A stretch of DNA of 64,000 nt from an uncultured Acidobacteriota bacterium (GTDB lineage: Bacteria; Acidobacteriota; Thermoanaerobaculia; Multivoradales; SZUA-115). Both the position numbers and the translations under genes were made by a program. The stretch lies in the NCBI GenBank assembly GCA_963805975.1, contig CAWDVR010000002.1:64001-128000 (forward strand), in the 5' to 3' direction. Under the pieces are notes generated by a model, which saw nothing but the letters and a program-made list of their open reading frames with translations, ran no database searches and had not been told where the DNA came from. This document shows, piece after piece, positions 26,384 through 58,890 of this stretch (position 1 is the stretch's first letter; every line of letters begins with the position of its first letter).

Positions 26384-26478
26384 TTTCTTCTATGAGGTTC
26401 GCCTCGATTGGCTCCTCACTGCATGCCCTGCGCATGCCTAGGATGGCGAGTCGAGGCGCTGTCTCACGGGAGAAAAGC

Positions 26479-29000: not shown

Positions 29001-31595
29001 TCACTCGGCCGCTTTCGGGAGCGTCTTGAAAGTCAGCCGTTCGAGCGACCAGGTCACGGGCAAGTCCAAGGGTTCGACGCCGCGGCTTGACGAGCCGGTC
29101 TGCGAGAGCAGCTCCTCGAGCAACGTGGTGCCGCGCGGGCCACGCGATCGGACTCCCGGAAACTGCACCACCCAGGGGTTGGGTATGGGTTCCTCGGTGC
29201 TGAGCAGGAAGTAGGTATCAGTGCCGAAAGGCTCACGGATTCGGAATATGTCCCGGGCTCCGACCTGAATCTCGTTGGGCCACCGGCCCGAGGGGGCGGT
29301 AACGATGGGGAAGCGATTCTCGACGCTGCCGAGCGCACCGCGCGGGAACAGCAGGACGCTGTTACCAAAGCTGTCGATGCTGAAGAAATAGAGATAGCGC
29401 GGAGCTCTGGCATAGGCGAGTGCTTGGGCATCGCTTTGCAGCACCAGTCCCAGCTTCTGGCCGGCATAGAGCTCGCCGTCACGGTGAATCTGGCCTGATT
29501 CTCCGCGCAGTGCAAAACGGTAAGGAAACTCGCTGCCCAACGGGGACTCGAGGGTCAGCCAGGCTCGGATCTTGGCGATGCGCAGCGCACTTTCGGTCAG
29601 CGTCTCCGCGCAGTTTTCGTTTTTTTCGTCGCACCAGTTGCTGCGCAGGGGAAGCGCAACCAGCTCCGGATCGGTCGCGCTCGCCTCCGGTCGGAGCCAG
29701 GCGAAGCTCATCTGACCCGCCACCAGGCGACCGACCAACAGATAGTGCGCGTCCGCCGGGTCCGAGACCCGTTCGACAGCGTCGTGCTGGCTGCCCTGCC
29801 CCAGATCGAGATGGCGCGCGAGGTCCGACGAAGAAGGCACGTTGACGAACAGGATTGGCTCTTTCGTTCCTGCCTGGAGCCGCCGCAGGATGTCCTTGCT
29901 CGCGGGCGTCGCGCCCAACGATTCGGGCACCCCGGCAGGATGGGTGAGCCACCATCCATCCTGCTTGCGGTACAGGACGTGCGTGGGCGTGCTCTCGGTC
30001 GGGTCCGTCACCCAGCGCACACCGCTCTTCTCGCTCAAATCGCAGAGCTGCCGAATCCAGGCCATTTGCTGGCTCCAGCTCGGGCCGGCTTCGGGAACCC
30101 ATACCTTCAAGGTGGGCTCGTTGGCAATGACCCAACGCGAGATGGCGACCAGCTCGCCCGCCGCAACCGGCTGCGGAGAGCGTCGCACGGACCTCGTGGC
30201 GACCACCCGCGCCTCGGCCGAAACCGGCCCCAAGACGCGAACCACGCGCAATCGCACGAGCTCCTCGTGGGGCGAAGAGCTCTGGAGATCGAGCTCCACG
30301 CCTTCGCGCAGACCGTGAATCCATCCCCCCTCCAGGATGACCGTGCCATCGGCGGAGGTTTTTTGAACCGCGATCATGCCGACCGACCGGGCCGAAGCCT
30401 GTTCATGGCCGAACAAGGGGCGTCGCTGGCGCTCCAAGGTGCCCGCGAGGACCGGCCGCTGCTGAGTCTCGCTGCCTTGCAGGAGAGCCCAGGCACGTTG
30501 AAACGTGACTTCGGCGCCCTCCCCGGGCAGCCCACGACCGAGCGCACTCAACAGGGCCTGCGAGAAGGCGCCGTGAATCTGTTTTGCCGGGTCTGAGATC
30601 TCGTAGGCCCGTTCGAAGTCCTGGGCCGCCGAGAGAATCAGCGCCCCGCGCTCTTCGGGTTTGCCGCCGGTCGGCGCCGAGTCCACCACACCACGCGTCG
30701 AGGCTGGCAGAAAACGTGGCGTCGCACTGGCCGGAATGCCGCGCGCGATGCTCCCGCTGTGGCAGCTGTCGAACAGGACTGTCAGCTTTGCGCCGGTGTC
30801 CAGGATCTGGTTGAAGAGTCGCGCCAGCTCCTTGTCGCGCAGGTCGTCGGCGCCCAGGTTGGAGTCCGCCGGCACCAGGCTCTCGTCGAGCTTGTCGTCT
30901 TCTTCGGAGGCCCGGTTGGGAACCTGCGACCCGTGGCCAGCATAGAAGAACACCAGCTCGTCGCCGCGCTTGGCAGAAGCCAGGAGGTGCTGCTCCAAGC
31001 CCTCGCGAATGGCCTGCCGCGTCGCAGCGCGATCGGTCAGCAGGAGCACCCCGGCAGCCGGAAAATCGTACTGCCCGATCAGCAGGTCGCGCATCGCTTC
31101 GGCATCGTTCACCGCGCCCCGCAGATTCCGCCAGCGCACTTGCTCTCGCGAGGCGACCGGCAACCCGGAGGTGTAGTCGTTGATGCCGACGATCAACGCC
31201 CGGCGCCTGGGAGCGGATGCGGAACGCCCCTCCGGAGGACGGGGCGCGGGAGCTCCCGTGGCCATGCCGGGCACTGGATCCGGCGTACCGAAAGGCACGG
31301 CACGAGTGCACGAGCGCACCCTCGCCACCGACAGCGCGAGGCCGCGAAGAATGCCGTGCCGCTGCACCGCTTCGCGCGAGTACTCCGAGCACGACGGCCG
31401 ATAACGGCAGCGGACATCTTCAGCCAGCCAAGGCCTGCCCAGCAGCTGATACTTCGCCACCGCCCAGTCGTAGGCTCGAGCCAGCTGCTGGGCCTGGGGT
31501 GGGCGCAGCGCATCGATCACCAAGGCCGTCAAGATCAGCCCGACGGCCAGCAGATAGGGCTCGGGCCTCTTCAGGTATTGCCGCAGTGCGGGCAT
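29001..31595 (-). CDS. YidD-like domain + caspase (peptidase C14) + DUF4384-like domain fusion
   Basis: TM/signal segment, CRYRPSCSEY..AVQRHG..RG...C..DPVP (YidD/haemolytic motif); ALIVGINDY, FYAGHG, FDSCHSG (His/Cys dyad); C-terminal YLYFFSID..LLFP..EPFGTD. Confidence 0.88.
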   Translation of the reverse strand: MPALRQYLKRPEPYLLAVGLILTALVIDALRPPQAQQLARAYDWAVAKYQLLGRPWLAEDVRCRYRPSCSEYSREAVQRHGILRGLALSVARVRSCTRAVPFGTPDPVPGMATGAPAPRPPEGRSASAPRRRALIVGINDYTSGLPVASREQVRWRNLRGAVNDAEAMRDLLIGQYDFPAAGVLLLTDRAATRQAIREGLEQHLLASAKRGDELVFFYAGHGSQVPNRASEEDDKLDESLVPADSNLGADDLRDKELARLFNQILDTGAKLTVLFDSCHSGSIARGIPASATPRFLPASTRGVVDSAPTGGKPEERGALILSAAQDFERAYEISDPAKQIHGAFSQALLSALGRGLPGEGAEVTFQRAWALLQGSETQQRPVLAGTLERQRRPLFGHEQASARSVGMIAVQKTSADGTVILEGGWIHGLREGVELDLQSSSPHEELVRLRVVRVLGPVSAEARVVATRSVRRSPQPVAAGELVAISRWVIANEPTLKVWVPEAGPSWSQQMAWIRQLCDLSEKSGVRWVTDPTESTPTHVLYRKQDGWWLTHPAGVPESLGATPASKDILRRLQAGTKEPILFVNVPSSSDLARHLDLGQGSQHDAVERVSDPADAHYLLVGRLVAGQMSFAWLRPEASATDPELVALPLRSNWCDEKNENCAETLTESALRIAKIRAWLTLESPLGSEFPYRFALRGESGQIHRDGELYAGQKLGLVLQSDAQALAYARAPRYLYFFSIDSFGNSVLLFPRGALGSVENRFPIVTAPSGRWPNEIQVGARDIFRIREPFGTDTYFLLSTEEPIPNPWVVQFPGVRSRGPRGTTLLEELLSQTGSSSRGVEPLDLPVTWSLERLTFKTLPKAAE

Positions 31596-31960
31596 CGTGC
31601 GCTGGCCTCGAGTCGCTGATTGTTGCAGTGAGGGCATCGGATCAAGTTACCCTGTGGGCGCGAGAACAGATAGATCACGAGGCCGATCACGCTGGTCAGC
31701 ATGACCAGCACCATCCACATCACAGCGCTGTCCATGCCGCGCGACTTCGCATCTCTCGCCACCCAGACGAGGAGCGCGATGTTGAGCGCGAAGATTGCGA
31801 TGGGTACGAGGATCAGGGTACCTGTAAATGCGCCACAGGTGCCGCAAGCAGCGCAGGCGACGGCGTCTTCCTGGGGATCGGACGGCTGGAAGGCGAACAG
31901 TGTGGGAGCAAGGCCTAGAAAGGCCAGAGCTGCCGCAACCAGAGCTTTGCGATGGCTCAT
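31571..31960 (-). CDS. Small membrane protein with a PLDc_N-like TM hairpin and a C-terminal zinc ribbon
   Basis: Signal peptide, CAACGTC, WVARDAKSRG..W..IGLVIYLFSRP, CPHC-x10-CPHC. Confidence 0.8.
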   Translation of the reverse strand: MSHRKALVAAALAFLGLAPTLFAFQPSDPQEDAVACAACGTCGAFTGTLILVPIAIFALNIALLVWVARDAKSRGMDSAVMWMVLVMLTSVIGLVIYLFSRPQGNLIRCPHCNNQRLEASARCPHCGNT

Positions 31961-32055: not shown

Positions 32056-35000
32056 TCAGGGCCTTTGTGGGGCCTCGACGATGCGGATGGCTTGGCGGCT
32101 GGTGCTGAGCGCAACGGCTGTCAGGTCGGGCGCTTTTCCGCGCTGTAGAAAAGCCTCGTCGAGCAGCGGCGCAAGCGGCCCCAAGCGCTCGCGCTCGCCA
32201 CGGCTGAGGCCGGAGAGCCGCGGCAAGCGCAGGGGCGAGAAGTCGATGGGCTCGGCGCTGGCGATCAGCAACAGCACATCGACCCCCAGAGGCTTGGTTA
32301 CCTGAAATACCTCGTTCAAGGTCCGGGGCCTGGGCTTGGCACTTGCCCTTTCACGCGCTCCGGGAGGCGGCCAGATCACGGCGATGTCTCCATCGGACAT
32401 CAAGTCGAGCACCGAGATGAAGGCGGCATCGTCACTGCCGGTGATCCGCAGCTCGAAGAGGCTGTCGAGCGGCAGCTCGATCTCCTCTCCGAGCGTGCGC
32501 ACCTGTTCTCGCGGATGGGCGACTACGCGACAGCTCTGGCGCGTCCCCGTGGTCGGGTCGGGGCAGTCCAGGAAGTCGACCGGCACCACCTCGAGCTCGG
32601 TGTGCAGGCGCGCATCGTACAAATCGAGCCGGCGCAGGTAGCGGTTCAGCGCCAGCCGGGGCGCGAGATCGGTCGCGGTGTCGCGGACCAGGAAAGCGCG
32701 TGCCGTGACGAGCTCGTCGTAGGCCACCGGCGAGGCCAGCTCGGCAATCGCTTCGTAAGGGGAGGCCTCCGAGATGCGAGCACCGGTGAGTGGATCGCCG
32801 ACCGCGGGCCCGGAGGCTCCTGCCGGATGGATCTCCAGCTCGGAGCCGACGGTGAGACCGGCCAGCAATCCAGGCCGCAGGCGGACCCATCGGTCCTTGC
32901 CGGCGATCGGGATCACCGTAAAGTACGGCAGCTGCCACGTCATCGGGGCTTCCAGGAAAAGCGGGCTGTCGAGCACGCCCTCGGCCTGAAGAACATTCGA
33001 CACCTTGCCGCGCAAGGCGGCTCGGGCTCGCTCGGCCAGCTCGCGATAGGTGAGCGGCGGTGGATCCTGAGCCAGCTCCCGGCTGATCGCCCACGTCAGA
33101 CTGCCCACGCGTTCCAGGTCGTGGCGCTTCACTTCGAGCGCCCGCTCCCCGGAACGCGACGCGGAGAGCACGATCAAGGGCGCCAAGCCCTCTTCATGGA
33201 TTTTCATCCCGCGCACGCCGTCGACGAGCCCCGAGATCATGTCTTCGCCCCGCGCCCCGGTGCCGGAGTGGCAGGCGTCCAGCAGCACCACGACTTGCCC
33301 TGTCGGCCCCAATCGGCGGCGCAACCGCTCGAGCAGCTCGCCCAAAGCGTCGTCGCGCAGATAGCGCTCGATACCTTCGCCGAGCGCACCCGGAGCTTCG
33401 TCGACAGGGGCGTCATACGGCACCAGCGCTTCGTCATAGCCGTCGAGCTCGTCACCGGGCTCGTCGTCGGGCAGCAGGCGGCCGTGGCTCGCCACGAAGA
33501 GCAGCGCCAGGTCCCCAGGTCGACTGGGCTCGATCAGCGCTTGCTCGACGGCGCTCACGATCCCGGCGCGAGTGGCATCGCGATTCAGCAACTCGCGGAT
33601 CGCCGACGGCGAGAATCCTCGGCTCTCGAGCGTGGTTCGCATCAGCACCACGTCTTGCTCCGAGGCGATCCTGCGCCAACCACTGCCGGCGGGGTATTCA
33701 CCGATCCCGACCAGGAGAGCGCGCCTGGCGGCAGGGCCGCGAGCGGCCCGCGGCGCGGGCAGCACCGCCGCTTCCGGCTCGGGAGGAGGCGGGGCCATCT
33801 CACCCGTCAGCGTGAAGGCTCCCCAGAAATAAGGAGCTCGAAAACGCTCGTCCGCGAGCAGCGCCAGCTGCGCCTGGCGCAGGGCCTCGCTGGCCGGCTG
33901 GCCCGCACGCAGCAAGCGATAGAACGAGACGGTGAGCTCCGCCGCCGCGAGGTCGTCGATCTTCCACAAGGTGGAAACCACGGCCGGACTGCCGGAGTAG
34001 AGGATGGCGCGCGCCAGGCTGGCGACCTCGTCACCGGCGCTGCGCTTGCCGAGCGCGGTCTCACAGGCCGAGAGCATCACGAGATTGACGCCGGAAAGAT
34101 CCACGCCGCTCAGCAGCTCGTGCACCTCCAGATTGCCGTCCTGGGCCTCGTCCGGTGCCAGGGCGATGCGTGTGAACGAAGAGCTGTTGGCGTTGTAGAG
34201 CCCGTGGGCCGCCAAGTGAACGAGATCGATCTTGCCGCCGAGGCCGTGCAGCTTGCTCTCGGTGGCTTCGCCGTCCAGCCAAGGCCGAGTACCCCAGATC
34301 TCGGCCACTTGACGCGCTTCGGCAGCGGCACCCGGCAAGAGAGGCAGCCGAGGGTCGGTGGCGGCCGGTGCTCCCAGGACGAGCGCACGGCCCTCGAAGG
34401 AGGTTTCCTTGGCGCGCAGAAATGGCAAGGCACTCGCCGACGGCAGGTACGACAACGTGTAGTCCTCGAGCAGGTACCTGCCCGTGTCCGGGTCCCGCAG
34501 GGTGGCGAAGGGAAGGTAATGGAGCACGCCGTGCGGAACGAGCACCACCCTCGTGCTCCCGAGCTTGGTCTTGAGAGGTGAGAACAGCCGCCGGTAGAGC
34601 CTCGTCGCACGCTCGAGGTCATCCGGACAACCGGAGATCACCTCGGCACCCCGCGTGGCGCTGCCTGCGTCGCGACCGAGCGCCGCCGAAAAGCACAGCA
34701 CGTCTTCGATCCCTGCCGTGCCCAGGTCGAGCGCAACGTGCTCGAGGCTCGTCCGGTTGGCCACCCAGACATGGGCCCTTGTCCCCGAGATGAAATAGCT
34801 CACTAGGCTTTCCGCCGGTGCCAGGCTCTGCTGCACGGCAGCGAGGTCGAGCGGCTCGATGGTGACGAGCGCGGCGTACTCGGGGCTGGTGACTTTGATG
34901 CGTGTCATCAAACCCTCGAGATCCGCCTTGGCATGGCCGATGTCCCGTTCGAGGTGGAGGCGCTCGGCGCCGGCGGCCGACGGCAGCTCGCGCTCCCAGC

Positions 35001-36978
35001 GAGCGATCGCCTGGCGCAGTGCGCTGGCATGCTCGGTCAGCCCCAGGTCGCCACCTCCGGTCGCGGTGATACGCCGGTTCCCCAGCTGTTGCAAGAAGGC
35101 GCGGGCACGGGCGCGCTCGGCATAGGAGAACGCCTCCGACACTTGCCCCTGCTCGATCAGCATCTGGATGATGGCGTCGTAGAAGACGTGACGGCCGCTG
35201 CCGAGGTAAGAGGACAGGAGATCCGTGTGGCGCAGCTCCTGCGCACCCCGCTCCATCACGGCAATCGCCTGGCGCAGCGTCGTGAGAGCTTGCGCGTGCC
35301 TGCCCTCGCGATAGTCGAGTGTCGCCAGAGCGGCCGACAGCAGGGCCGTCAGATCGGCATTCTCGAGCTTGCGGGCCTCTCCCAGTGCGTTCGACCAGTG
35401 GCTACGCGCCAAGTCGATTTTTCCGCTCTCCAGGGCAGCGTGGCCAAGATGGAACTCGGAAACGAGGGTGAGCTCAACGGGTTGCGCGCGCCTCTCGGTA
35501 GCGCCGTTCTGGGGAGGCGCCGCGGAGGGTGCGGTTAGTGCGCGATGTAGCTGATCGCGCCAGGGATCTTGCCCCGGGATCCTCTGCAAGAGCTCGGACA
35601 GCCGGGCTCGCAGCTGCCCGGCGTCGAGGCCGCCCGGCTGCCCGCTTTGGATCTCCGCCAGCAGGCTCAGCAGAGCCTGTGCCGGCATCCACTCGCTCTC
35701 GACCGCGGCCGCTTGCCCGCGCTCCAGCATCGAGCGCGCGCTCGCCTCGGATGCCAGCATGAAATAGACCTCCACCAGGGCAGCACTGGACGCGGCCTCG
35801 AGCAGGACCTGACCCCGTTGGCCGAAGATCGCGACCGCCTCTTCGAGGAACCGCGCGGCGTCTCCATAAGCACCCCGCTGGTAGGCCAGCTGGCCACGAT
35901 CCGACTGAATCGTCGCCAGCCGTAGGGAGTTCCCGCTGGCGCGAGCGCGGCCCAGGGCCTCGACCAGCGTCTGCTCCGCCTGGTCGAAGAGGTTCTGGTC
36001 GAGGTAGAGCGTGGCGCGACTTTCGAGTACCGATGCGTGACGTGCCGAGTCGCCGTCCTCGGTGGCCAGGGCCAGCGCCCGGTCGTTCCAGGACAGTGCA
36101 GGCCCGAAGTGGCCGGCCAGGGCGTCGATCTCGGCCAGCCGCCGGAGCGCGGCGATCTGCATCCGATGGTCCTTGGCGAAGGAGAACAAGCTGAACATGC
36201 CGGCGTTCTCGAGCGACTTCTCCAGATGCGCCTTGGCTTCTTCGAGTCGCCACTGTTGCCGTCGCAGCTCACCCCAAGCACCATCCAGCGACGTCACGAA
36301 CAGCCCCCCGAGAAGCTCCGACTTCGCTTGTGCCTGCTCGAGCTCTTGCTCGGCCTCCTCGATCCGGCCCAGGTCCAGGAGCACGAACACCCTTTCACCG
36401 CGCGCCGCTCCCTCCATCACGCTTGCCAGCATAGGTGTTATCAGCGCCAGCATCGGCCCGGCTCCTTCGAGCTGGCCGGTGGGGGCACCAAACAGTCGCC
36501 CCATCGCCAGGAAGCCCTCGAGCGAGGCCGGGCGCCCGGCAAGAGTGAGCTGATGGAGCTGCTCGATCGCGCTGTTGAAATGTGCCAACGCCCTCTCGCT
36601 GTGCCCCAACATGCGATCGGACATTCCCTGTATCACCAGCACCATGCTGGCGGCAAAGAGGTCGCCGCTACTGGCGAAGCGCGCCGACGACGCCTCGAAA
36701 TCCGCCGCCGCGCGGCGCTCGTCTTCTGCGGCGAGCGCGGTCAGTCCACGCACCAAAAGCGCCAGCGCCTCTCCTTGGCCATCGCCGATGCTGCGATAGA
36801 GCTCCAAGGCCTGCTCCACGCCTGCGACCGACTCTACCGAGCCCTGGAGCGCCCGCTGGACCTGGTCGCTCAGCAAGGCTTCGGCCCGTGCACGAATCTC
36901 CTCGGGAGATTCCGCCGCGAGTGGAACCGTGAGCAGGGTGAAGACGATGGACAGTGAAACCACGGTGGATCTCGACAT
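32056..36978 (-). CDS. Secreted TPR-CHAT-caspase(C14)-DUF4384-like multidomain protease
   Basis: Signal peptide, TPR-like helices, CHAT (PHGVLHYLPF, HLAAHG, LSACET, PYFWGAF), caspase (ALLVGIGEY, VASHG, LDACHSG). Confidence 0.9.
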   Translation of the reverse strand: MSRSTVVSLSIVFTLLTVPLAAESPEEIRARAEALLSDQVQRALQGSVESVAGVEQALELYRSIGDGQGEALALLVRGLTALAAEDERRAAADFEASSARFASSGDLFAASMVLVIQGMSDRMLGHSERALAHFNSAIEQLHQLTLAGRPASLEGFLAMGRLFGAPTGQLEGAGPMLALITPMLASVMEGAARGERVFVLLDLGRIEEAEQELEQAQAKSELLGGLFVTSLDGAWGELRRQQWRLEEAKAHLEKSLENAGMFSLFSFAKDHRMQIAALRRLAEIDALAGHFGPALSWNDRALALATEDGDSARHASVLESRATLYLDQNLFDQAEQTLVEALGRARASGNSLRLATIQSDRGQLAYQRGAYGDAARFLEEAVAIFGQRGQVLLEAASSAALVEVYFMLASEASARSMLERGQAAAVESEWMPAQALLSLLAEIQSGQPGGLDAGQLRARLSELLQRIPGQDPWRDQLHRALTAPSAAPPQNGATERRAQPVELTLVSEFHLGHAALESGKIDLARSHWSNALGEARKLENADLTALLSAALATLDYREGRHAQALTTLRQAIAVMERGAQELRHTDLLSSYLGSGRHVFYDAIIQMLIEQGQVSEAFSYAERARARAFLQQLGNRRITATGGGDLGLTEHASALRQAIARWERELPSAAGAERLHLERDIGHAKADLEGLMTRIKVTSPEYAALVTIEPLDLAAVQQSLAPAESLVSYFISGTRAHVWVANRTSLEHVALDLGTAGIEDVLCFSAALGRDAGSATRGAEVISGCPDDLERATRLYRRLFSPLKTKLGSTRVVLVPHGVLHYLPFATLRDPDTGRYLLEDYTLSYLPSASALPFLRAKETSFEGRALVLGAPAATDPRLPLLPGAAAEARQVAEIWGTRPWLDGEATESKLHGLGGKIDLVHLAAHGLYNANSSSFTRIALAPDEAQDGNLEVHELLSGVDLSGVNLVMLSACETALGKRSAGDEVASLARAILYSGSPAVVSTLWKIDDLAAAELTVSFYRLLRAGQPASEALRQAQLALLADERFRAPYFWGAFTLTGEMAPPPPEPEAAVLPAPRAARGPAARRALLVGIGEYPAGSGWRRIASEQDVVLMRTTLESRGFSPSAIRELLNRDATRAGIVSAVEQALIEPSRPGDLALLFVASHGRLLPDDEPGDELDGYDEALVPYDAPVDEAPGALGEGIERYLRDDALGELLERLRRRLGPTGQVVVLLDACHSGTGARGEDMISGLVDGVRGMKIHEEGLAPLIVLSASRSGERALEVKRHDLERVGSLTWAISRELAQDPPPLTYRELAERARAALRGKVSNVLQAEGVLDSPLFLEAPMTWQLPYFTVIPIAGKDRWVRLRPGLLAGLTVGSELEIHPAGASGPAVGDPLTGARISEASPYEAIAELASPVAYDELVTARAFLVRDTATDLAPRLALNRYLRRLDLYDARLHTELEVVPVDFLDCPDPTTGTRQSCRVVAHPREQVRTLGEEIELPLDSLFELRITGSDDAAFISVLDLMSDGDIAVIWPPPGARERASAKPRPRTLNEVFQVTKPLGVDVLLLIASAEPIDFSPLRLPRLSGLSRGERERLGPLAPLLDEAFLQRGKAPDLTAVALSTSRQAIRIVEAPQRP

Positions 36979-37002: not shown

Positions 37003-39771
37003 TCAGCGAGACAGGACGAAAGCGCCCGCTCCGAGGACAGCATCGACGAGCGAACGCGTGCGGCGGAGCCGGATCAGCTCCTCGCGCTGCACCTCTGCAA
37101 ACGCCCGCCGGGGGTCGGAGGTCGCGAAGAGTCGCGGATAGAAGCGCTCCATGAAGGCGTAGGCATCGGCATCATGGATCCGCCAAAGTGAGAACAGCAG
37201 GTGTTGTGCACCCGCGAGCCGGAAGCCGTGACGAAGCCCCAGTACCCCTTCTCCATTCGGCGCCTCTCCCAGGCCCGTTTCACAGGCCGACAAGACGCAG
37301 AGCCAGGTGCGCGTGAGGTCCAGGCCGGCGATCTCGTCGGCGTTCAGGAAACCGTCGTGGTCCGGCGCGAGGGCTTCTGCACTCTCCGGCTTCTGCTGGG
37401 CGAGGTGGAGGTAGCCCCGCAGCAGGGGAGAGCGAGCGCTGGCCGGCGCCGCCGTGGACGGTAATCGCAGGAAGCTGCCGTGAGTTGCAAAGTGCAGGAC
37501 ACGCGCCGACGGTTGTCGCGCAACCACCTCTTCACGGGCCTGGTCACCAGTCAGCACACGAGCCTGCCAGCCCTGTTGCTTGGCCACGGACGCCACGAAA
37601 CGGGCCTCGCTTTCGGGCAATGCCAGCCGCGCGTCGTTTCTCCCGACGGCCAGCAGCGTCTTCTCGGCTGCCGACACAGCCGGCTGGAGAAGCTGGCGGC
37701 CGGAGGTGATGTACAGGATAGTGAAGTCTTCGGCGACGAAGCGATCATCCTCTCCCGGCAGTGCGGCCCACGGCACGAAGTGTAGCGCTGCGTCCGGGCT
37801 GAGGATGACAGCTTGCGTGCCTTCCGGAAGCGCCGTGGCCAAGGGCTGCCAGAACCGACGATGGAGCCGGCGCAGGGTGGCGAGAAAAGCCTCGGTGTCC
37901 TCACACGGCCCGGAAGCCTCCGAGCCGCGCCCGCGGATCGCCAGGCAATCTCCCAGCCGGGCGATCTGCTCTTCGATCTCGGCTGCGGCTCCCAGCAGAA
38001 TCCAGCGTGGGCTCCGGTTGGCGGAGATGAGCAACGCCCCATAGTGCGGTACCAGCCGGCGGTTGGCATCCAACTGCTCGAAGCGCACCATCTCGATCAA
38101 GACCTGCCGTGGCTCAAGGGCTGCCTGCACGCGCTCGAGGTCGACGTCGAACACCCGCTCGACCACCGGCATGCTCAGCGACTTGGCGAGCGCCGTCTCC
38201 TCCGCTTCGAGCCTGCGCTCCAGGAGCTCGAAGCCGGGGACGTCGACCTTCTTGCCGGTGCCCTCGCCGAGCTTGGCCATGAGCTCCCGCTTGAGGGCGC
38301 GGATGCGGTCCAATCGCTCGCGGTCGCCCGCCTGTGTGCTGCGCCGCGCCAAGGCGCGCTCGTAGAACAACGATGCAGAGACGGCTCCCTTCATCGTCAG
38401 CACGGCGTCGGCGAGCGGACGTGGCTCGCCCAGGTTCGCCAGCAGGTCATACGGGAACGTCTGTTTCCGATAGCTCAAGCGCTGGGCCTCGGAGCCAAAG
38501 CTCAGGATCTGTCCCAGGTGCTTCCGGTCGAGCACCATCGCCGCTTCGGCAAGTTTCCTGGCCTGATCCGAATCGCCACGCTGCTGCGCGATCACGGCCC
38601 GCCCTTTCATCAGGGCCGCCGAGAGCGGGTGCTGTTGCGATCCGTGAGCGGCCCACAGATTCTCGGCACGTAGCAGAAGCTGATCCGCCTCGGCGAGATC
38701 GTTCTCGGCCAGCGCCATCATCGCGAGATTCGACAGCGAGGCCACCAGCTTGGCCGGCGCGGTGCCGGCCTGGGCTTCGAGAATCGCCAGCGCTTCTCCC
38801 AGATGTTGCTTCGCCCGGCCGACATCACCGGCTTCGAGGGCAACCAGCGCGAGGTTTCCCAGCACGGTTGCTCGCTCTTCGCTTTTCGGGTGCGTGAGAT
38901 CGACCGCCTGCAGCAATCTCGCCTCGGCCTCCTGGAATCGCTCGAGGCCACGCAGGGCCTCGCCGAGATCGTTGAACAGAGCGAGCCGAACCTTGGCATC
39001 GGGTGCGGGCGAGCCTGCCAGGAGCTTCTCGTCGATCGCGCGGGCCCGCTCGTGATCGCCCATCGTCAGACGCAGCGCTGCCCAGTTGTGCTGGGTGATC
39101 ACGAGCTCTCTTGTCCGACTTGGCCCGAGCCCCTCGAGCAAGGCGATCGCTTCGAGGTAGGCGGCATCGGCCTGCTCCCAATCTCCCAAATGGGTAGCCG
39201 CGCTGGCCAGGTTCTGCCAGACAATCGCCCGCTCGGCTGCGCGGGATGGCGCGGGCAGAGCTTCTAAGGCGCGGGCGAAGATCTCGGCTGCCGCATCGAT
39301 CTCGCCCCACTGGAGGCGGATCATGCCCATGTTGTTGTAGAGCCAGCCGAGGTCCGGGCGCCCCGCGACCTGTGCTTCGAGGATGCGTCGCGCCTGCTCG
39401 TAGTAGGTCTGGGCACGGTCGAGATCGCCGATGGCGCCGTAGAGCTGTGCCAGAAAACCGAGGCTGCGTCCGACTGCGGCACTGTTCTCACCCTGAAGAG
39501 TGCGTGCTGCCTGCGTGAGCACCTCGAGCGCGGGAATCGCCGCCGCCGCGGATTCGCGGGGCACGGCGGGCAGCCCTGGGATGTTCACAAAGCCGCCGCC
39601 TTCTCCTGCTGCAGCGGCGGGTATGGGCCTGCGGGCTTCGAGTCGCTCGGCCGCTGTGCGGGTAGCCCGGACAGCCCAGATCAACACTCCCGTGCCCAGG
39701 ACTAGCAGAGGCAACAGGCAGCCCAGGCAGAACACCTTGAGCACGCGCCGCAGCCGTATCGCCTTGCTCAT
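37003..39771 (-). CDS. Membrane-anchored TPR-CHAT protease
   Basis: N-terminal TM, TPR repeats (YNNMG, WQNLA, LSNLA), SPDAALHFVPW, HFATHG, LSACETG. Confidence 0.9.
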   Translation of the reverse strand: MSKAIRLRRVLKVFCLGCLLPLLVLGTGVLIWAVRATRTAAERLEARRPIPAAAAGEGGGFVNIPGLPAVPRESAAAAIPALEVLTQAARTLQGENSAAVGRSLGFLAQLYGAIGDLDRAQTYYEQARRILEAQVAGRPDLGWLYNNMGMIRLQWGEIDAAAEIFARALEALPAPSRAAERAIVWQNLASAATHLGDWEQADAAYLEAIALLEGLGPSRTRELVITQHNWAALRLTMGDHERARAIDEKLLAGSPAPDAKVRLALFNDLGEALRGLERFQEAEARLLQAVDLTHPKSEERATVLGNLALVALEAGDVGRAKQHLGEALAILEAQAGTAPAKLVASLSNLAMMALAENDLAEADQLLLRAENLWAAHGSQQHPLSAALMKGRAVIAQQRGDSDQARKLAEAAMVLDRKHLGQILSFGSEAQRLSYRKQTFPYDLLANLGEPRPLADAVLTMKGAVSASLFYERALARRSTQAGDRERLDRIRALKRELMAKLGEGTGKKVDVPGFELLERRLEAEETALAKSLSMPVVERVFDVDLERVQAALEPRQVLIEMVRFEQLDANRRLVPHYGALLISANRSPRWILLGAAAEIEEQIARLGDCLAIRGRGSEASGPCEDTEAFLATLRRLHRRFWQPLATALPEGTQAVILSPDAALHFVPWAALPGEDDRFVAEDFTILYITSGRQLLQPAVSAAEKTLLAVGRNDARLALPESEARFVASVAKQQGWQARVLTGDQAREEVVARQPSARVLHFATHGSFLRLPSTAAPASARSPLLRGYLHLAQQKPESAEALAPDHDGFLNADEIAGLDLTRTWLCVLSACETGLGEAPNGEGVLGLRHGFRLAGAQHLLFSLWRIHDADAYAFMERFYPRLFATSDPRRAFAEVQREELIRLRRTRSLVDAVLGAGAFVLSR

Positions 39772-39832
39772 CCTCGTGCCTTCCACGCTTCCGAAGACAC
39801 GCCAAGAGCACTTTCAGGGGGTGCGGCCGGAC

Positions 39833-40642
39833 CTATGCGGGCGGAATCTCGATCCGGTCGGCGAAGACCTGCGCTTCCGTTCCGGACGAAGAGATACCGA
39901 CGACACGGATCTCGTAGCGCCCCGGGGCCAGCGCCGCCCTGGAAAGGGCCACTGAAAAAGTGGCATCGGGCAGCAGCTTCAGCCCTGACCGGCTCCACAG
40001 AGGCTGCTCTCCCATGCGATCCATCGAGCGCACTTCCAGACGGTAGTCGTCGTAGGGTTGTGGATCCAGAGTCGCCAGCTGGAGAAAGAGCACATCGCCG
40101 CTCCCTTCCAGTCGTCGGGGCGCGACCTCCACGGGTGAGGAGCCACGCGGTGCCAGCGGTGCCAATCGGTGGAATTCGACATTGATCTGAACGCCCGAGG
40201 TCGCGGCCAGGCGCTGCTCAGCCCCCAGTCGCCCGGCCCGCTCCTGATACCCCCAGAGCGCGAGCCCCAGGATCGCCAACAGCGAGGCTGCCAGCAGGGC
40301 GAGAGCGGGAAGACGGCGATCTCGACGGTCCGGCCCACGCTGCCGCGCACCGGACCGGATGCGGCCCTGGATCTTCTTCCAATCCTGCGCCAGCTCCTCG
40401 GGCGATAGATGACCGGGCTCCCCTCGAGTCGCGGCGGGAGGAAAGGCGGCGAATTGGCTCGCCAGCAGCGCAGCTTCCGGATCGAGGGCAATCGCCTCTT
40501 CGACCCGCTCGCGCTCTTCTGCGGCGAGCTCGTCATTGAGGTATGCGAAAATATCTTCGGCACTAACCTTCATTTCGGGTCGCCGGCGCAGCTCGGCGGC
40601 CAAACCCTCGAGAGCGACCGAAAGTTCTTTGTTTCGCTTCAC
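39833..40642 (-). CDS. Putative anti-sigma factor (ASD-like N-terminus, one TM, extracytoplasmic Ig-like domain)
   Basis: Directly downstream of the ECF sigma gene; AYLNDELAAEERERVEE resembles the zf-HC2/ASD helix pair; TM LALLAASLLAILGLALW; LAPGRYEIRV. Confidence 0.75.
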   Translation of the reverse strand: MKRNKELSVALEGLAAELRRRPEMKVSAEDIFAYLNDELAAEERERVEEAIALDPEAALLASQFAAFPPAATRGEPGHLSPEELAQDWKKIQGRIRSGARQRGPDRRDRRLPALALLAASLLAILGLALWGYQERAGRLGAEQRLAATSGVQINVEFHRLAPLAPRGSSPVEVAPRRLEGSGDVLFLQLATLDPQPYDDYRLEVRSMDRMGEQPLWSRSGLKLLPDATFSVALSRAALAPGRYEIRVVGISSSGTEAQVFADRIEIPPA

Positions 40643-40665: not shown

Positions 40666-41223
40666 CTAGTCGAGGCGCAGCCGCGTGCCGCTCAGCATCC
40701 GTTTCAGGGTCTTCAGAGCATCATGGCGCAGACTCTTGACCGTCTCGACCGAGATCGCAAGCAGCTCCGCGATCTCTTTGTAGCTGTGATCCTGATTCTG
40801 CAGCAGGATCACGTGTCGCTGACGGGGCGAGAGCTCCTTGATCGCAGTCCGCAGCAGCCCGAGTGCCTCTTCGATCTCCAGCTTCTTGTCGGCCGGCATA
40901 TCCTGACTTAGCAGCTGCCAAGAAATCAGCATTTCGCCCGGCAAGCTCGATTCCGCATCGATTGCAACCCTCTGACCACTACGCATCTTGGCTCTCCGGT
41001 AGCGAATCTCGTTGGACCAGACGCCGTGGATGATCGTAAAGAGCCATGTCTTCTCGGAAGATTCGTCGCGGAACGTGCCACGGTATTGATAGACACGTAC
41101 AAAAACATCTTGTGCTAGATCGCGAGCCTCGTCCTTGGAGCAGCCGCGGGCGACAAAGAAAGCCACGACGCGCGGATACCACGCCGCATAGAAGCGTTCG
41201 AACCACTGGTCATCTCTGTTCAC
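40666..41223 (-). CDS. ECF RNA polymerase sigma factor
   Basis: Region 2 (ARDLAQDVFVRVY, TWLFTI) and region 4 (LSPRQR, SYKEIAELLAISVETVKS); 185 aa. Confidence 0.93.
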   Translation of the reverse strand: MNRDDQWFERFYAAWYPRVVAFFVARGCSKDEARDLAQDVFVRVYQYRGTFRDESSEKTWLFTIIHGVWSNEIRYRRAKMRSGQRVAIDAESSLPGEMLISWQLLSQDMPADKKLEIEEALGLLRTAIKELSPRQRHVILLQNQDHSYKEIAELLAISVETVKSLRHDALKTLKRMLSGTRLRLD

Positions 41224-41410
41224 GGGCCCTCCGCTGAATCGATCCTAGCAGTATTCCGCCAGCCCTCTTCGTGCTGGGTTGGCAACCTTCGAGCACGCAC
41301 ACTTTCTGCTAGCCTCTGAGAAAGCAATTTCGACCATCCAAGATGCAGCCTGCCCCCTCGCCAGCGACGCTCTGGAACTGACCGGCATTGCCGTGGAGGT
41401 ATCTAGATCC

Positions 41411-44400
41411 ATGAGATTCGGCCTTTGGGTCCCGACCAGTCTGATCGTCCTCCTCGGCTCTGCTTGCATCGGTCGCTCTCCCGCCGACGAGAGGGCGTCG
41501 ATGGAGCCGCTCGCCCGTCCTTTTCCGGTACGTCTCTCCGTCCCGACCACGTATCTCCCTTGCGCGCTCGACGTGGCTCCGGGCCCTCTCCCGCGCAATC
41601 CGCGATGTCCGGAGCCGTCCACTGCAGCCCCCCCCTCTTCCGTTCACGATGTGTCTATAGACACGGCTGAGCAAGCTCGCGGGGTAGCGGGTAGCCATCG
41701 CAGCGCCATCGCGGCGCTGCTCAAGGCCAGTGAGTCTTACGACTTCGAGGAGGCGTTCTCGTTGTTCGAGGCCGAGCTTCAGAATTCGAGCTCCGCGGCG
41801 CTGCTGAACGATTTCGCAGCGGCCCATTGGGTGCGGTCCCAACAGCTCGATCAACCGGTGGACCTCGTGCGGAGCTTGGAATTGGTCCGGCAAGCGGTCG
41901 AGGCCGACGAGAGCTTCGCCCCGGCAATGTTCAACGCCGGCCTGCTCTGTCGATCCCTGGGGCTTTCTTGGTGCGAGCGCGAGGCCTGGGAGCGCTACTT
42001 GCGATTGGACTCGGACCCTTCCTCGCCGTGGGCGCAAGAGGCTCGCCAGCACCAAGCCCGGCTCGCATGGCCGTCGCTCCAATCCCTGGCACAAGCAAAG
42101 ATGGGACTCGAAGAGGCTGTCACCAAGCGTGACTCGGTGCGCCTGCGCCACTTGGTGGCTTCACACCCGGGAACCGCCGAAGCGTGGGCGCTGGACGTTC
42201 TTCTCGGCAAATGGGCTGCGGCCGTGGAGCAAAAGCAGGCGGCTCACGCCGCCGCGCTGCTCGCCGATGCGCGGCTCATCGCCGATGAGACCGGGGCCAC
42301 TCGTCGCAATCGCCCGCTGTCGGCTGCGGTGGCGGCCATCGAGCGTGCCGGGCAAACAGACTCCGAGGCGGCTCGCCTCGCATCCCTCGTCCGCGGCCAC
42401 GCGTCCTACGCTCGAGGCATACAGCGATTCACCACCGATTACGAGCCTGCCGCTCGACACTTCACCGCCGCGCGACAGGCGCTCGCGCAGGGCGGCAGTC
42501 CGTTCGCCCTCGTCGCAGAGCTCCAACGCATCACGTGCCTGATGCGCAACAACGAGTACGAACGCGGGCTCGATGCACTTCGTCGCCTCGAGCGTGAAGA
42601 GGGTATTTTGCCGCCCGCGCTCGGCGGGCGAGTGTATTGGCTGCGCAGTTTTGCCGAAACCCATCAGCGACGGCTTCTCGAAGCCATCGATTCGTACCGC
42701 CAGGCGGTCGCTCTCTACGAACAGGCGGAAGACGCCTCGAGCCTTTTCTGGGCAGAGTGGCGGCTCGCCGAGCTGCTCGACTTGGTCGGGCAGACCGAGG
42801 TGGCATGGCAGCACCGCTATCGTGAGCTGGCACGCCTCGGGAGCATAGAAGACCTGCGAGGTCGCACGTGGGCTCTCAGCGAAGCTTCGGCGGCCGTTCT
42901 CGGCCTGAATGCCAAGCACTCCGCAAAGCTCCTGCACACGGAGGCCGTTCAGGTCGGCCGACTCGCGGGAGACGATTTGATCCTCGCCGAAGCGCTCCGG
43001 AAGAGCGCCGACGTCGCGCTAGCCAGCGGCCAGCCCGAGGAAGCTCGTGAGGCCGTGCAGGAAGCCTCCCGCATTGCCAGCGACTTCGGTCAAGGCAATG
43101 CCTCTGACGCCGTCGAGCTCAAGATTCTCCAAATCGAGGGACGCTTGGCGCTGCCTTCGGAGCCAGCTCGAGCGCTGGCCAAGTTCGAAGCGGCGAGCGC
43201 GCTTGCCCGTACTCTCGGCCAAACGATTTATCTCCCCGAGCTGCACGCTGAGCGTGCCGAGGCGCTGGGACTGCTGCACCGCTTCGCCGAGCGCGAGGAG
43301 GCGCTCGATGCCGCCGTACTGCTGGTCGAAGAGGAATGGGAGGCGGCGCTCAAAGAGCGTTCTCCGGGCGATTACGAGGCGCTGTGGCCAACTTATTTCG
43401 GCCCGGGCCGAAAATCTTTCGATCGCCTCATCGAGGCGTTGGTTCTCGAAGGAAAGTTGGACCGCGCCCTCACGGTTGCCGAGCGTGCCCGGGCCCGCGA
43501 GGTCCTCGACCTGCTACGCGATCCGGCGGCATTGCAGAGTGGTCTGAGGAGTTTTTTCCGGGGCGAAACCCGTCCGTTGACCGTAGCGGAGCTGATCGCC
43601 CGGCTTCCCCCCAAAACGGCCGTGGTCGAGTTCGCGCTGACGGAGGATCGGCTGTTCACCTGGGTGCTGGCGCGGGACGGAGTCCGATTTTTCCACGAGC
43701 AGCCGGCCGGGCCGGTGCTGGCGCAGGAGATCGAGAGCGCGATCGACGCTATCCGCTCGAGCACGCAGCAGTTTGAGATCGAAAGGCGTCTGGCCGCGCC
43801 CTTCGATCGCCTGATCAGGCCGCTCGACGGTTACCTCCGAGAGGCGGAACACCTGGTCTTCATCCCGGACGGCGCTCTCCATGCCTTGCCGTTCGCAGCG
43901 CTCTACGACCGTTCGACACGCCGTTTCCTGATCGAGAGCCATCCTGTGGCCATCACCCCCAGCGCGACGCTCTATGCCTACGCCCTGGAGCGCAATCGCG
44001 AGCTCGCCGCCATCGAGCGCCGGGCCCCGAAGAGTGAGCCTGGGCTCTTGGCCGTCTGCGACCCCGCCTTTCCGGCCGAGAAGTTCCCTGCCCTGAGCCG
44101 CCTCTCGGGCGCGGCCGCCGAGTGCACTGCCGTCGCCGAGCAATATCCGAGCTCGACCCTTCTGGCCGGCGAGACGGCGACGAAACGCCAGTTCCTGACG
44201 GAGCTGAGCCGGCACTCGGTGCTTCACTTCGCCGGCCATGCCATCGGGCACCCGTCGGCAGCCTACATCGTGCTGGCGGCGGACTCGTCGGACGAGCTCG
44301 GCATCCTGTACGCCAGCGATCTTCTTTCCCGGGAGACCGGTCGGACCCGCATCGCCGTTCTTTCGGCTTGCAGCTCGGTTGCCGAGCAGGCGGCGCGCGG

Positions 44401-44674
44401 GCAGGGGGTGGCCGCGCTCGTTCGGCCGCTGATGGGCGCCGGAATTCCGGCGGTGGTCGGGACACTGTGGAAGGTGGACGATCAAGCGACGCTCCATTGG
44501 GCCCGGTCGTTCCATCACCACCTGCTCGCCGGTGACGATGCCGCGCGCGCCATGCAGGCGGCACAGCTCGATCTATTGCACGCCAAGCAGCTCAAGCTTC
44601 AGCTACCTCAGTCCTGGGCAGCGTTCCAGCTGGTGGGATATGCCTCTTTTTTGGAGGAGAACAAGGAGGAGTAG
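41411..44674 (+). CDS. Exported (possible lipoprotein) TPR-CHAT protease
   Basis: SD GGAGG then MRFGLWVPTSLIVLLGSAC (lipobox-like); IPDGALHALPF, HFAGHA, LSACSS, WAAFQLVG. Confidence 0.88.
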   Translation: MRFGLWVPTSLIVLLGSACIGRSPADERASMEPLARPFPVRLSVPTTYLPCALDVAPGPLPRNPRCPEPSTAAPPSSVHDVSIDTAEQARGVAGSHRSAIAALLKASESYDFEEAFSLFEAELQNSSSAALLNDFAAAHWVRSQQLDQPVDLVRSLELVRQAVEADESFAPAMFNAGLLCRSLGLSWCEREAWERYLRLDSDPSSPWAQEARQHQARLAWPSLQSLAQAKMGLEEAVTKRDSVRLRHLVASHPGTAEAWALDVLLGKWAAAVEQKQAAHAAALLADARLIADETGATRRNRPLSAAVAAIERAGQTDSEAARLASLVRGHASYARGIQRFTTDYEPAARHFTAARQALAQGGSPFALVAELQRITCLMRNNEYERGLDALRRLEREEGILPPALGGRVYWLRSFAETHQRRLLEAIDSYRQAVALYEQAEDASSLFWAEWRLAELLDLVGQTEVAWQHRYRELARLGSIEDLRGRTWALSEASAAVLGLNAKHSAKLLHTEAVQVGRLAGDDLILAEALRKSADVALASGQPEEAREAVQEASRIASDFGQGNASDAVELKILQIEGRLALPSEPARALAKFEAASALARTLGQTIYLPELHAERAEALGLLHRFAEREEALDAAVLLVEEEWEAALKERSPGDYEALWPTYFGPGRKSFDRLIEALVLEGKLDRALTVAERARAREVLDLLRDPAALQSGLRSFFRGETRPLTVAELIARLPPKTAVVEFALTEDRLFTWVLARDGVRFFHEQPAGPVLAQEIESAIDAIRSSTQQFEIERRLAAPFDRLIRPLDGYLREAEHLVFIPDGALHALPFAALYDRSTRRFLIESHPVAITPSATLYAYALERNRELAAIERRAPKSEPGLLAVCDPAFPAEKFPALSRLSGAAAECTAVAEQYPSSTLLAGETATKRQFLTELSRHSVLHFAGHAIGHPSAAYIVLAADSSDELGILYASDLLSRETGRTRIAVLSACSSVAEQAARGQGVAALVRPLMGAGIPAVVGTLWKVDDQATLHWARSFHHHLLAGDDAARAMQAAQLDLLHAKQLKLQLPQSWAAFQLVGYASFLEENKEE

Positions 44675-47835: not shown

Positions 47836-50800
47836 TCACTCTGGAGCATCAGGCTCCGGAGGCAGGGCGCGTCCGATCAGGATCTGGCCCAGCAGGGCCG
47901 GGTAGCTGCGCATCGGCTTTTGGAAACCTCCTGAAGCCGACTCGACCTGGGCCGACACGTGACGATAGAGCTCGTCGAGGTCGATCAGGCCGTCTCCCGA
48001 GCTGTCCGCGGCGCCGCGCAATCCCTCGAGCAGGTAGTAGGTGAAGAGGCCGTGCTCGAGACGGTTGTCTTCGACCGCCACCTGGTTGGGCTCGCTGGCC
48101 GCGAGGATCGCCCGCCCACTGCCGGCGCTCGCCAGGCGGCTCAAGAACTCCGCGCTCAGACTGTTGCGCACAGAGCCGTTACCGCCGAAAACGGTGCGCC
48201 CGCCCGCGGTCGAGGCACCGCTGAAGCAGCTGTCGATCATCACCACCACGCGCTCGGCGCGATAACGCCGCAGGATCAGCTCGAGCTCGCTCATGGGCAG
48301 TGCCGAGCTGTAGAGATCTGCCGATACCGCGTCGACGGGCAGGAAGTATTTGGTGAGGCCGTCGGGCTCCGCAATGCCGATGGCTTGTTCCGGCATGCCG
48401 TGCCCGGCTAGGAAGAGGATCACGGTGTCCCCGGCGCTCGTGGCACGCTGTGGCAGCACGGTACCGAGAAGGCTCCGTACCTCCCGCAGCGTCGCCTGTT
48501 CGTTCGTTCGCACGAAGACCTGCTCGGCCGGCAGATCCAACGCAGTGCGGAAATAAGCGGCCACCGCCTCGGCGTCTTTGTGGGCATAGCGCAATGGCCG
48601 AATCGCGGTGTCCTGGTAGGAGCTCACACCGATAGCCACCAGCCAAACACGCCGACTCTCATCGTCTCGATAGAGCGACAGCACCCGAACGCCGCGCTGG
48701 CCATCAGCGGTGATGGCGGTCACTTCGAAGCGGTTCTCACCGCGGGCGAGCTGCACCGGCAACTCGTAAGTGCTCGCATTCAAGCTCCCGTCACGCACGG
48801 TTCTCGCGGGTGACGAATCCAGGGCGACCGGACGGTCGTTCAGGCGCAGGCGGACGTCTTCGAGCTCCGTGGCATGCTGAATCTCGAAGCGAAGGACGAT
48901 GGCTTCCTGCGCCACCTTCTCGCCGAACTGCTGCCGGAGAAAGGAGATCGTCGGTGCCAAGACGGCTCGCGCCGGCGTGGCGGGCTGTGGCACCGGCTCT
49001 GGTGGAGCGGCACTCATCACCACGGGCGCCTGCTCGACCACCCTCACCGCGGCATTTGTCCGTAGTGGTGCGAAATCCCGCTGCGTCACCGAGACGACGA
49101 GCGGAGCCTCGCCCGGCCCAGCACCGGTACGCACGGAGATCGGCACACGGATCCGCCGCGCGCCTCGTGATGGGACGATGTCCAGCAGAACCTCGCGCTT
49201 GGTTCTCGGCAGCCCCAAGTCGTCGAGCAGGTCCACTCCGGGCATCGAGCTTTCGAGCGTGACCTGTACTTGCTCGGCGGCGAGGTCCCCGCTGTTGCGC
49301 AGCTCCAAGGAGAGCTCCCGGGCCGTGCCGCGCTCGAGCTCCACGACCGAGGGAACGCTCAGCTCGAGCTGGGGCTGGAGGCTCCAGAACTCGACGGGCA
49401 GATCCTGGACGAGATCCGGAAAGCCGTCTTGGCGAATGCGCGCCGTCAACGGGAGGCGAGCTGGCTGCGCTCCTGCTCCGAAGCCCCGCGGCAGGCTCAG
49501 CACCACCCATTGGCTGCGGCTCGTCGCACCCGCCGGTAGCGTGCCGAAGTCGACTTGAGCCGGCTTCGGCTGCAGGAGGTCGGTGCTCGAGGCCAGCTCC
49601 AGTCGCACGTTCTCCGAGGACAACGACCCGTCGTTGCTGACCGCGAGGATCAACTCGACGGTCTCACCATTGTTCGCAATACCATCGGAGTTCCCTCTCG
49701 AGCCGGGTGAAGCTCCATCCGCGAGTTGAGTCGTAACCCGCAGCCGTGGCGCTCGGGCGACCGTGCTCCACCCCTGCTGACGTGTGGTCGACGCGGCCAG
49801 CTCGCCTCGGCCATCAACTGCCGAGAAAGTGAGCTGCAGCTGTGGGGCCAGCCCATTGCGCGAGACTGCGAGCAGAAAGCGGCTCTCGGCGATGTCGTGG
49901 CTCGCCAGGCGCTGGATGATGCCCGGCGTGGACAGCACGTGGACGCTTGCCAGCGGCTCCAGTAGCCCAACGCGAACGCCAAGGGCATCGCCCGCTCCCG
50001 AGTTGCGCACTCGAACGACAACCTCGACCGTCTCCCCGGCTCCGGGGAGGCCGTCACCATCCCCGACAGCGGGCGGCGTGGCGTCGTTGATGGCGACGTC
50101 AAAAATCTCGAGCGCCGGTGACGCGAAGCTCACCGCCGCCACCTCGAGAAGAATGGAGCGGGCCGCATAGCCACGGTTCTCGAGCACCTCGGCGCGCAGA
50201 GCGATCGGTCGGGCAGGTAGGCCCAAAGTGCTGTGGAAGCTGATCTCGTACACCAGGTCGGCACCGACACCGAGGTCGCCGAGCCCCGTGACCGCCGGTA
50301 CGATCAGCGACGGCTCGTCGGACGACAACCGGAGGCTAAGACCGAAAGCTTTGCCCGGGCCTTCGTTGCGCACCTTCACGCGGAGCCGAGCCGCTTCGCC
50401 GGCGTCCAGGCGACCGTTGGGCAGGAGACTGTCGTTGTCATCCAGCTCGATCGAGGCGAGAAGGGTCGCGGGCGCCGTCGACAGGCGCTCGAAAGAATCG
50501 AGCACACGGCGCAGGGACGGTGATCCCCGTAAGCTTTGGATGCAGCTCGAAATCGCCAGACGGAATGCATCCTCCGTGTAGGCTTCGACGAGAAGCGCCG
50601 GACTCCAGAAGTTAAACCCCTTTCGGTCCTCACCCGAGCAGTCCACGGTCACAATGGGTGCGTGCGCTCCATCGAACAGCTCCAGCTGCAATTGCGCTTG
50701 AACACCGGGGCCTGCTCCTCCCGGAGCACCAAGGACTTTGGTTGAGAAGCTGTAGACCGCCTCGAGCAGATGCGGCTCCTGCGGGGGGATTGGCGTGCTT

Positions 50801-57194: not shown

Positions 57195-57208
57195 GGGAAA
57201 CCTCGCTT

Positions 57209-58888: not shown

Positions 58889-58890
58889 CG

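Follow-up and report, generated by a model that had tools for sequence, protein, structure and literature searches.

A described precedent for a CHAT protease acting on a caspase is the SAVED-CHAT/PCaspase system of Haliangium ochraceum (PDB 8tl0), where initiator-effector logic has been demonstrated: a SAVED-CHAT protein, gated through SAVED by cyclic triadenylate (cA3), cleaves and activates the C14 protease PCaspase in trans, and both proteins are cytoplasmic and tied to CRISPR and to cyclic-oligonucleotide-based antiphage signalling (CBASS) (10.1101/2023.06.23.546230). In the DdvA-DdvS system of Myxococcus xanthus (PDB 8rot), a periplasmic unit of tetratricopeptide repeats (TPR) and CHAT is tied to both a zinc anti-sigma factor and a sigma factor of the extracytoplasmic function (ECF) class, and proteolytic release of sigma has been proposed (PMC11506125). 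HetF of Anabaena PCC 7120, a membrane divisome protein with no C14 partner, cuts the non-protease substrate PatU3 after Arg and before a small P1' residue, at R117|S118 (PMC9457339). Among caspase relatives, promiscuous cutting after Arg is described for a bacterial caspase-like protease (10.1101/2024.10.24.620036), metacaspases that probably carry signal peptides are on record (PMC3501461), and of 473 cyanobacterial orthocaspases 23 carry DUF4384 and one carries CHAT (PMC8283722, Table 1). Here we describe a gene of an uncultured acidobacterium (class Thermoanaerobaculia) that joins the two protease types in one chain. It lies at 32056..36978 on the minus strand of a 64,000-nucleotide stretch, the window (assembly GCA_963805975.1, contig CAWDVR010000002.1, positions 64,001 to 128,000), and encodes a signal-like N-terminus, a TPR region, a CHAT domain, a Pro-rich linker, a C14 metacaspase domain, a small beta domain and a DUF4384-like domain. 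The pairing of CHAT with C14 is itself known from the one cyanobacterial protein tabulated; what is new is a real and rare TPR-CHAT-C14-DUF4384-like fusion. A literature search, with supplements and most subscription papers outside its scope, found no account of such a fusion, of an Arg-Gly loop closed by Cys residues, or of any CHAT protein from Thermoanaerobaculia, and PMC8195603 offered nothing that bears on them.

The open reading frame (ORF) is uninterrupted over 1640 aa, in a window that contains no N, and holds both Pfam matches and both catalytic dyads, bearing out the original prediction, read from the letters of this DNA, of CHAT and caspase in tandem in a single polypeptide. The interval then assigned (32056..34600) spans only residues ~793-1640 of the ORF, and the motifs named were in place: HLAAHG (921-926), LSACET (969-974), AARG (1078-1081), VASHG (1162-1166) and LDACHSG (1233-1239). 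The protein had also been called secreted. Residues 1 to ~23 (36910..36978; features are on the minus strand unless marked otherwise) form a predicted signal peptide, its cleavage site placed by eye; the top 19-residue hydrophobic window begins at residue 4, and a comparable N-terminal stretch occurs in 112/118 TPR-CHAT relatives, against 2/118 for an internal control. Export is thus a prediction whose sole basis is N-terminal hydrophobicity. Residues ~24-700 (34879..36909) make up a TPR/helical region with Pfam matches to TPR_12 (315-385) and TPR_MalT (272-411), a predicted sensor or regulator.

The CHAT domain (residues 789-1060; 33799..34614) matched PF12770 with an E value of 1.8e-71 and 241 bits, against a cut-off of 24, and its dyad, H925/C972, is kept in 120/120 sequences, a set made up of the best 120 of 7991 scored word-sharing candidates. 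Its structural model aligned with Csx29 (Z 28.0, root-mean-square deviation (rmsd) 3.0, 315 residues aligned), separase (Z 28.0, rmsd 3.2, 306 aligned) and DdvA (Z 23.3, rmsd 4.0, 304 aligned). By family score, separase-like model fold and intact dyad this part of the fusion is a CHAT protease, whose activity and P1 specificity are predicted. Just ahead of the CHAT core is a loop that the original prediction did not include, C762...R776-G777...C784 (34627..34695). Position 776 is Arg in 118/120 sequences, followed by Gly in 110/120, in a loop whose length and sequence otherwise vary; both Cys are present in 110, neither in 9 and one in 1 of the 120, and residues 774-781 have a predicted local distance difference test (pLDDT) score below 50. 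Conservation and model together suggest a flexible Arg-Gly processing loop closed by a disulfide, which looks like a nicking loop. Among 30 CHATs sampled from four genomes without a C14 match, none had the Cys-flanked loop; R[GS] occurred in 17/30, compared with a background of 38%, and never with two Cys. We considered and rejected the idea that the Cys-RG-Cys loop always comes with a caspase beside it, as a C14 gene was present in 4 of 12 such loci (Thermoanaerobaculia/Acidobacteria), and four full-length loci plus G049 (33 kb) have none. One TPR-CHAT paralogue with this loop in the source genome (G000:C3:9095-13684) carries a frameshift just ahead of the catalytic His, either a true mutation or an assembly error.

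The C14 domain (32944..33726) comprises p20 and p10 and matched Peptidase_C14 (PF00656) at residues 1085-1323 with E 1.3e-16 and 61 bits (cut-off 21.4). Its dyad is kept almost throughout the best 150 C14-DUF4384 representatives, a set that includes several of our own seed sequences (H1165 in 150/150, C1236 in 149/150). The closest folds to the model were AtMC4 (Z 25.7, rmsd 2.7, 228 aligned, with p20 and p10 both there) and AtMC9. In metacaspases a pair of Asp residues forms the S1 pocket for Arg or Lys and an acidic cluster forms the Ca2+ site; the counterparts here, located through alignment to Yca1, are D1109/D1234 and the cluster at 1177-1183. By Pfam match, modelled fold, dyad and acidic set, this half is a Peptidase C14 metacaspase. 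It is followed by a small beta domain (residues ~1350-1436; 32671..32931) with weak likeness to ATPase N-terminal barrels (Z 8.2-8.7, ~70 aligned, a middling match for a domain not folded alone), and then by an Ig-type beta-sandwich (32059..32622) with a Cys pair at 1472/1483, which resembles a complement C5 MG domain at a middling Z of about 8, again as a domain not folded alone. The earlier description of this tail as DUF4384-like is the right wording, because PF14326 was matched at E 0.004 and below its gathering score (17.6 bits, threshold 27), and by 10/19 aligned family members.

Candidate cleavage sites stand out by conservation and not by number. Fifteen RG dipeptides in the fusion, against a shuffle mean of 11.4, are not above chance (p 0.15), and we rejected overall enrichment. 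The prediction that RG closely follows the catalytic Cys in both DUF4384-type caspases of this locus fits R1243-Gly (Cys+7; Arg in 150/150, Gly next in 134), in the p20-p10 loop, and Arg299-Gly in the neighbouring caspase; a second Arg in the p20-p10 linker is found in 147/150. Further sites near the C-terminus, likewise foreseen, are R1613 (142/149) and R1593 (117/142). The p20-p10 loop has a pLDDT below 50, and residues 1612-1616 also form a low-confidence loop. The Pro/Ala-rich linker between the proteases (33727..33798) does contain the AARG that had been singled out; the motif is not conserved, being absent from the fused orthologue P0003, and was set aside as a key site. Elsewhere, one of two tandem caspases in G007 (L035:7925-10429) is a pseudo-caspase, with Tyr for the catalytic Cys and its Arg-Gly sites kept.

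We consider the fusion almost certainly genuine. P0003, a 968-aa partial protein on a separate 3.3-kb contig of another assembly, aligns over CHAT (66% identity), linker (32%), C14 (57%) and tail (56%) with both dyads kept, and a tree built from 35 CHAT regions places it as the sister of the fusion protein (support 98/85), consistent with a single fusion event long ago. Three further proteins, P0035, P0275 and P0159 (1781-1793 aa), have the reverse order, C14-DUF4384 and then TPR-CHAT; P0035 and P0159 are 54% identical and form their own clade in the same tree (support 100/99). By sequence and tree, fusion has occurred twice, independently and in opposite orders; the suggested search for other CHAT+C14 fusions returned both.

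CHAT-C14 fusions are rare. Among the matches listed, 2/119 CHAT relatives carry PF00656, and 1/150 of the best C14-DUF4384 representatives carries CHAT, although this second list gives too low a count for fusions with the divergent type of C14, since the fusion itself (P0001) and P0003 lie outside it. None was found in 80 metagenome C14 loci, nor in 60 regions from relatives, which covered all listed PF00656 matches with an ORF of at least 1000 aa and some shorter. In the source genome both domains share one ORF, out of 22 CHAT and 7 C14 ORFs. A 1004-aa candidate in G007:C106 was rejected, both models matching the same stretch and hence one domain. Other large proteins encountered were P0010 (2159 aa), with two TPR-CHAT units of which the first is apparently frameshifted, a 2781-aa double CHAT (L232) and a 1918-aa double C14 (G058:C199, L325).

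The two genes are normally separate neighbours. A separate CHAT gene lies within ~4 kb of 14/18 C14-DUF4384 ORFs examined and is present in 25/41 metagenome C14 loci of at least 10 kb. All four loci with the C14 type nearest the fused module (contig C3 of the source genome, G007, G028 and G050) are TPR-CHAT/C14/C14 operons; that of the source genome is an unfused paralogous operon of C14-DUF4384, TPR-CHAT and C14-DUF4384 (G000:C3:28486-35872), and no C14 in this genome is nearer to the fused module than its second caspase (42-45%). P0012, whose CHAT clade is sister to the one that holds the fusion, is directly followed by a separate caspase, though of the 878-aa type, and the fusion's linker resembles the Pro/Ala-rich C-terminal tail of unfused TPR-CHATs. 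The original prediction had read the gene as a Rosetta-stone fusion, a fair reading because the gene joins two habitual neighbours, usually apart, often adjacent, and fused twice in opposite orders. Across the source's order, CHAT genes were found in 59/61 genomes searched (up to 30 or more) and C14 genes in 43/61; we found no paper on them, supplements and most subscription papers again being outside the search.

Set against the described systems, the fusion shares with SAVED-CHAT/PCaspase the pairing of CHAT with C14 and the presence of sigma factor, kinase and signalling genes nearby, and differs in being one predicted exported chain with a TPR sensor and a caspase with a DUF4384-like tail. 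It may work like that system but is not a member, because it has no SAVED: no SAVED match was found in the 21 window proteins scanned, and no CRISPR type III gene or CBASS cyclase among 21 ORFs scanned (26.4-63.9 kb) or 8 in PADLOC, a genome-wide search not having been made. DdvA resembles the CHAT half in fold and in its link to anti-sigma and ECF sigma factors, but there the TPR-CHAT lies inside the anti-sigma factor, whereas here the anti-sigma factor is a separate gene (39833..40642) and a C14 protease is added; zinc anti-sigma, transmembrane helix and TPR-CHAT do not occur in one chain in the fusion. Csx29 (the TPR-CHAT of Craspase) and separase are the closest solved CHAT folds, with His-Cys dyads and TPR regulation, yet no Cas7-11/Csx30 context was seen, and the fusion scored 41 bits on the Csx29 model NF041237, for which the cut-off is 300. 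HetF is alike in being a CHAT that cuts after Arg. The C14 half shares p20+p10 fold, dyad, S1 Asp pair and acidic cluster with metacaspases and orthocaspases (AtMC4, AtMC9, Yca1, MaOC1), and its DUF4384-like companion with cyanobacterial C14-DUF4384 proteins (PMC8283722); it differs in its predicted export and in the TPR-CHAT ahead of it in the same chain.

We propose that the protein, a rare in-frame fusion joining a TPR-CHAT protease to a C14-DUF4384 protease of the metacaspase type, may be a double zymogen that would be exported. A signal at the TPRs would align the CHAT dyad; CHAT would cut the caspase at R1243|G, in cis or between chains, and switch it on; and the active caspase may be a broader Arg-cutting amplifier, with possible feedback on the Cys-closed R776 loop. 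Both domains are predicted to favour Arg|Gly or Arg|Ser. Anti-sigma outer domains would then be cut, with release of the ECF sigma factor as output. Because relatives manage in trans, the fusion would just raise local concentration. An exported two-step zymogen, in which TPR-gated CHAT cuts and activates the caspase at the Cys+7 Arg, has in our estimate a probability of about 0.4. The trans precedent of SAVED-CHAT, the Arg|Ser cut of HetF and the position of the caspase Arg in a flexible loop make it plausible. The PCaspase cut may lie at R153, seven residues after catalytic Cys146, which would match R1243; the preprint gives no such position. That the fusion is a self-contained exported initiator-effector cascade, in which CHAT and C14, two caspase-fold proteases of different build and each with its own Arg-Gly loop, switch each other on in the periplasm and use this shared Arg-Gly code to open a membrane anti-sigma factor, we regard as somewhat unlikely.

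The candidate substrate, encoded in the separate gene noted above, is a membrane anti-sigma factor of the zinc-finger type whose predicted outer domain contains Arg166-Gly. In its family one Arg column is kept in 23/23 sequences, with R[G/S] nearby in 20/23, in an alignment of a kind that can favour such columns. The Arg is also present in 8/8 family members (19 hidden Markov model hits less a length filter and de-duplication, one of them weak) from four genomes of 93-98% completeness, each with 14-33 matches to CHAT but none to C14. Since the Arg is kept there without a C14 match, a cutter other than C14 is likely in those genomes, which points to the lineage's CHATs.

Several observations weigh against a CHAT-first order. 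A1013, Ala in 89/120 sequences, replaces the Asp that reads P1 Arg in separase (an equivalence drawn from the D2151/K670 match in PMC9729208, also PMC10317155, and our alignment). CHAT's own Arg-Gly loop permits the reverse order, and the orthocaspase MaOC1 autocatalyses (PMC8283722). The C14 half keeps the acidic set of self-processing types (D1109 in 144/150, D1234 in 150/150, E1177/D1179/D1182/E1183 in 140-149/150). The Cys+7 Arg is kept in 16/16 metagenome loci of at least 10 kb without a nearby CHAT gene, as tallied from printed motifs, in loci whose CHAT may lie elsewhere. The fusion has itself lost 21 residues in frame (residues 1244-1260, window ~33200-33255), which deletes the second Arg-Gly site and leaves a p20-p10 linker of 33 aa; the orthologue has 54 aa here, the six closest unfused relatives measured have 52-66, and the span across 129 representatives is 36-61. 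Because the fusion partner of the neighbouring caspase is a YidD-like gene unrelated to it, a fused pair at this locus is not bound to be enzyme and substrate, and a genome-wide PF00656 search recovers 5/7 C14 ORFs of the source genome, so genomes that appear to lack caspases are not proven to do so. The claim that CHAT activates the caspase therefore survives as the likeliest order without being fixed, caspase self-maturation or the reverse order being nearly as likely. Action in cis, which had been proposed with it, is not required, because fused proteins are the rare exception among relatives; the two modules occur in either order, and AARG in the linker lacks conservation.

A reverse or mutual order is the best surviving alternative, although an unlikely one. 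C14 would self-mature at R1243, probably with Ca2+ as in type II metacaspases, and nick the R776-G777 loop of TPR-CHAT, which would then be the specific downstream protease, for instance for the anti-sigma factor. The full metacaspase acidic set, the AtMC4- and AtMC9-like model, the Cys+7 Arg kept where no CHAT gene is near, a CHAT without the separase-type S1 Asp, and a Cys-Arg-Gly-Cys loop that is near-invariant in this CHAT subfamily and missing from the CHATs of genomes without a C14 match all suit that order. C14 genes nonetheless accompany few of the loci with such a loop, the loop could be an autocleavage site of CHAT as in separase (PMC10317155), and the one tested pair goes from CHAT to caspase.

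Distinctly unlikely, in our judgement, is that the halves are tethered and independent, each self-maturing at its own Arg loop and sharing Arg|Gly substrates, the fusion being what is left after two co-expressed genes lost, without penalty, the stop codon and signal peptide that lay between them. It would accord with the 117/119 CHAT relatives (among the matches listed) and 149/150 C14 relatives (best 150) that are unfused, with the absence of fusions from the 80 metagenome loci and the relatives' loci examined, with the occurrence of both orders, with an unconserved linker similar to the tail seen on unfused CHATs, and with a neighbour fused to a YidD-like gene. Against it, the fusion has persisted with both dyads intact across 34-44% sequence divergence and arose twice, and genes of the two types show strong linkage as neighbours.

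It is improbable that the Arg-Gly motifs are uncut and serve for docking or as pseudo-substrates, occupying an S1 pocket and holding proteases or anti-sigma factors in place. An invariant Arg among variable flanks fits P1 occupancy with or without cleavage, and the DdvA TPR-CHAT was without autoproteolysis under the conditions tested (PMC11506125), but a small P1' residue (G/S/A) and flexible exposure match known cleavage preferences (R|S in HetF, and those of a type IV Thoeris caspase), and covarying flanking Cys would keep nicked chains joined. An assembly chimera or sequencing read-through, which the original prediction had named as its own possible undoing, is hardly credible: the fusion protein was seen on one contig only, yet an independent orthologue has the same junction, a second fusion of reverse order exists, GC content at third codon positions stays uniform over the length of the ORF (0.81-0.82 for the domains), and the assembly has 6 contigs at 96% completeness and 0% contamination.

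In the accessible literature, a CHAT-to-caspase cascade has been demonstrated only for the cytoplasmic CRISPR-linked system. The self-contained cascade considered above, if true, would give Thermoanaerobaculia an extracytoplasmic equivalent of apoptotic caspase cascades, caught twice by fusion in opposite orders. One chain holds both active sites and at least three candidate Arg sites, so a single construct could test such a cascade, and could reveal the order of cutting and whether the neighbouring anti-sigma Arg-Gly is a cut site.

The surrounding genes contain further members of both families. Downstream is the 878-aa C14-DUF4384-like caspase (29001..31637; dyad H235/C292), whose residues ~15-125 are YidD-like (Pfam E 1e-14; TIGR00278 above its cut-off). 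The YidD-like unit stands alone as a 175-codon ORF in a relative (L328, G005) and was on no other C14 in the sets examined, which marks this caspase, by sequence, as a second local gene fusion. Upstream of the CHAT-C14 gene is a 927-aa TPR-CHAT gene (37003..39786) with a Cys-flanked Arg-Gly loop before its CHAT core, then the anti-sigma gene and, at the head of the run, an ECF sigma factor (40666..41223). A divergent TPR-CHAT gene (41279..44674, plus strand), a CARDB/NEW3-repeat protein with a C-terminal C14 caspase (47836..51291) and two more TPR-CHAT genes, each with the Cys-flanked loop (51240..56493), lie beyond.

The stretch from 26 to 58 kb, which holds five CHAT and three C14 domains, has a GC content of 0.62-0.68, compared with 0.70 for the contig. 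A tyrosine integrase (26392-27714, plus strand) marks its left edge, with no tRNA in the window beside it. At 56490-61879 (minus strand) a PP2C phosphatase, two FHA proteins (one with a trypsin-like domain), a Ser/Thr kinase and a glycine-zipper protein lead into the last-named pair of TPR-CHAT genes. Two plus-strand ORFs inside the lower-GC stretch, 44678-45763 (361 aa) and 46414-47811 (465 aa), gave no Pfam, NCBIfam or PADLOC match; the 361-aa product carries RG motifs both close to its C-terminus and right at it.

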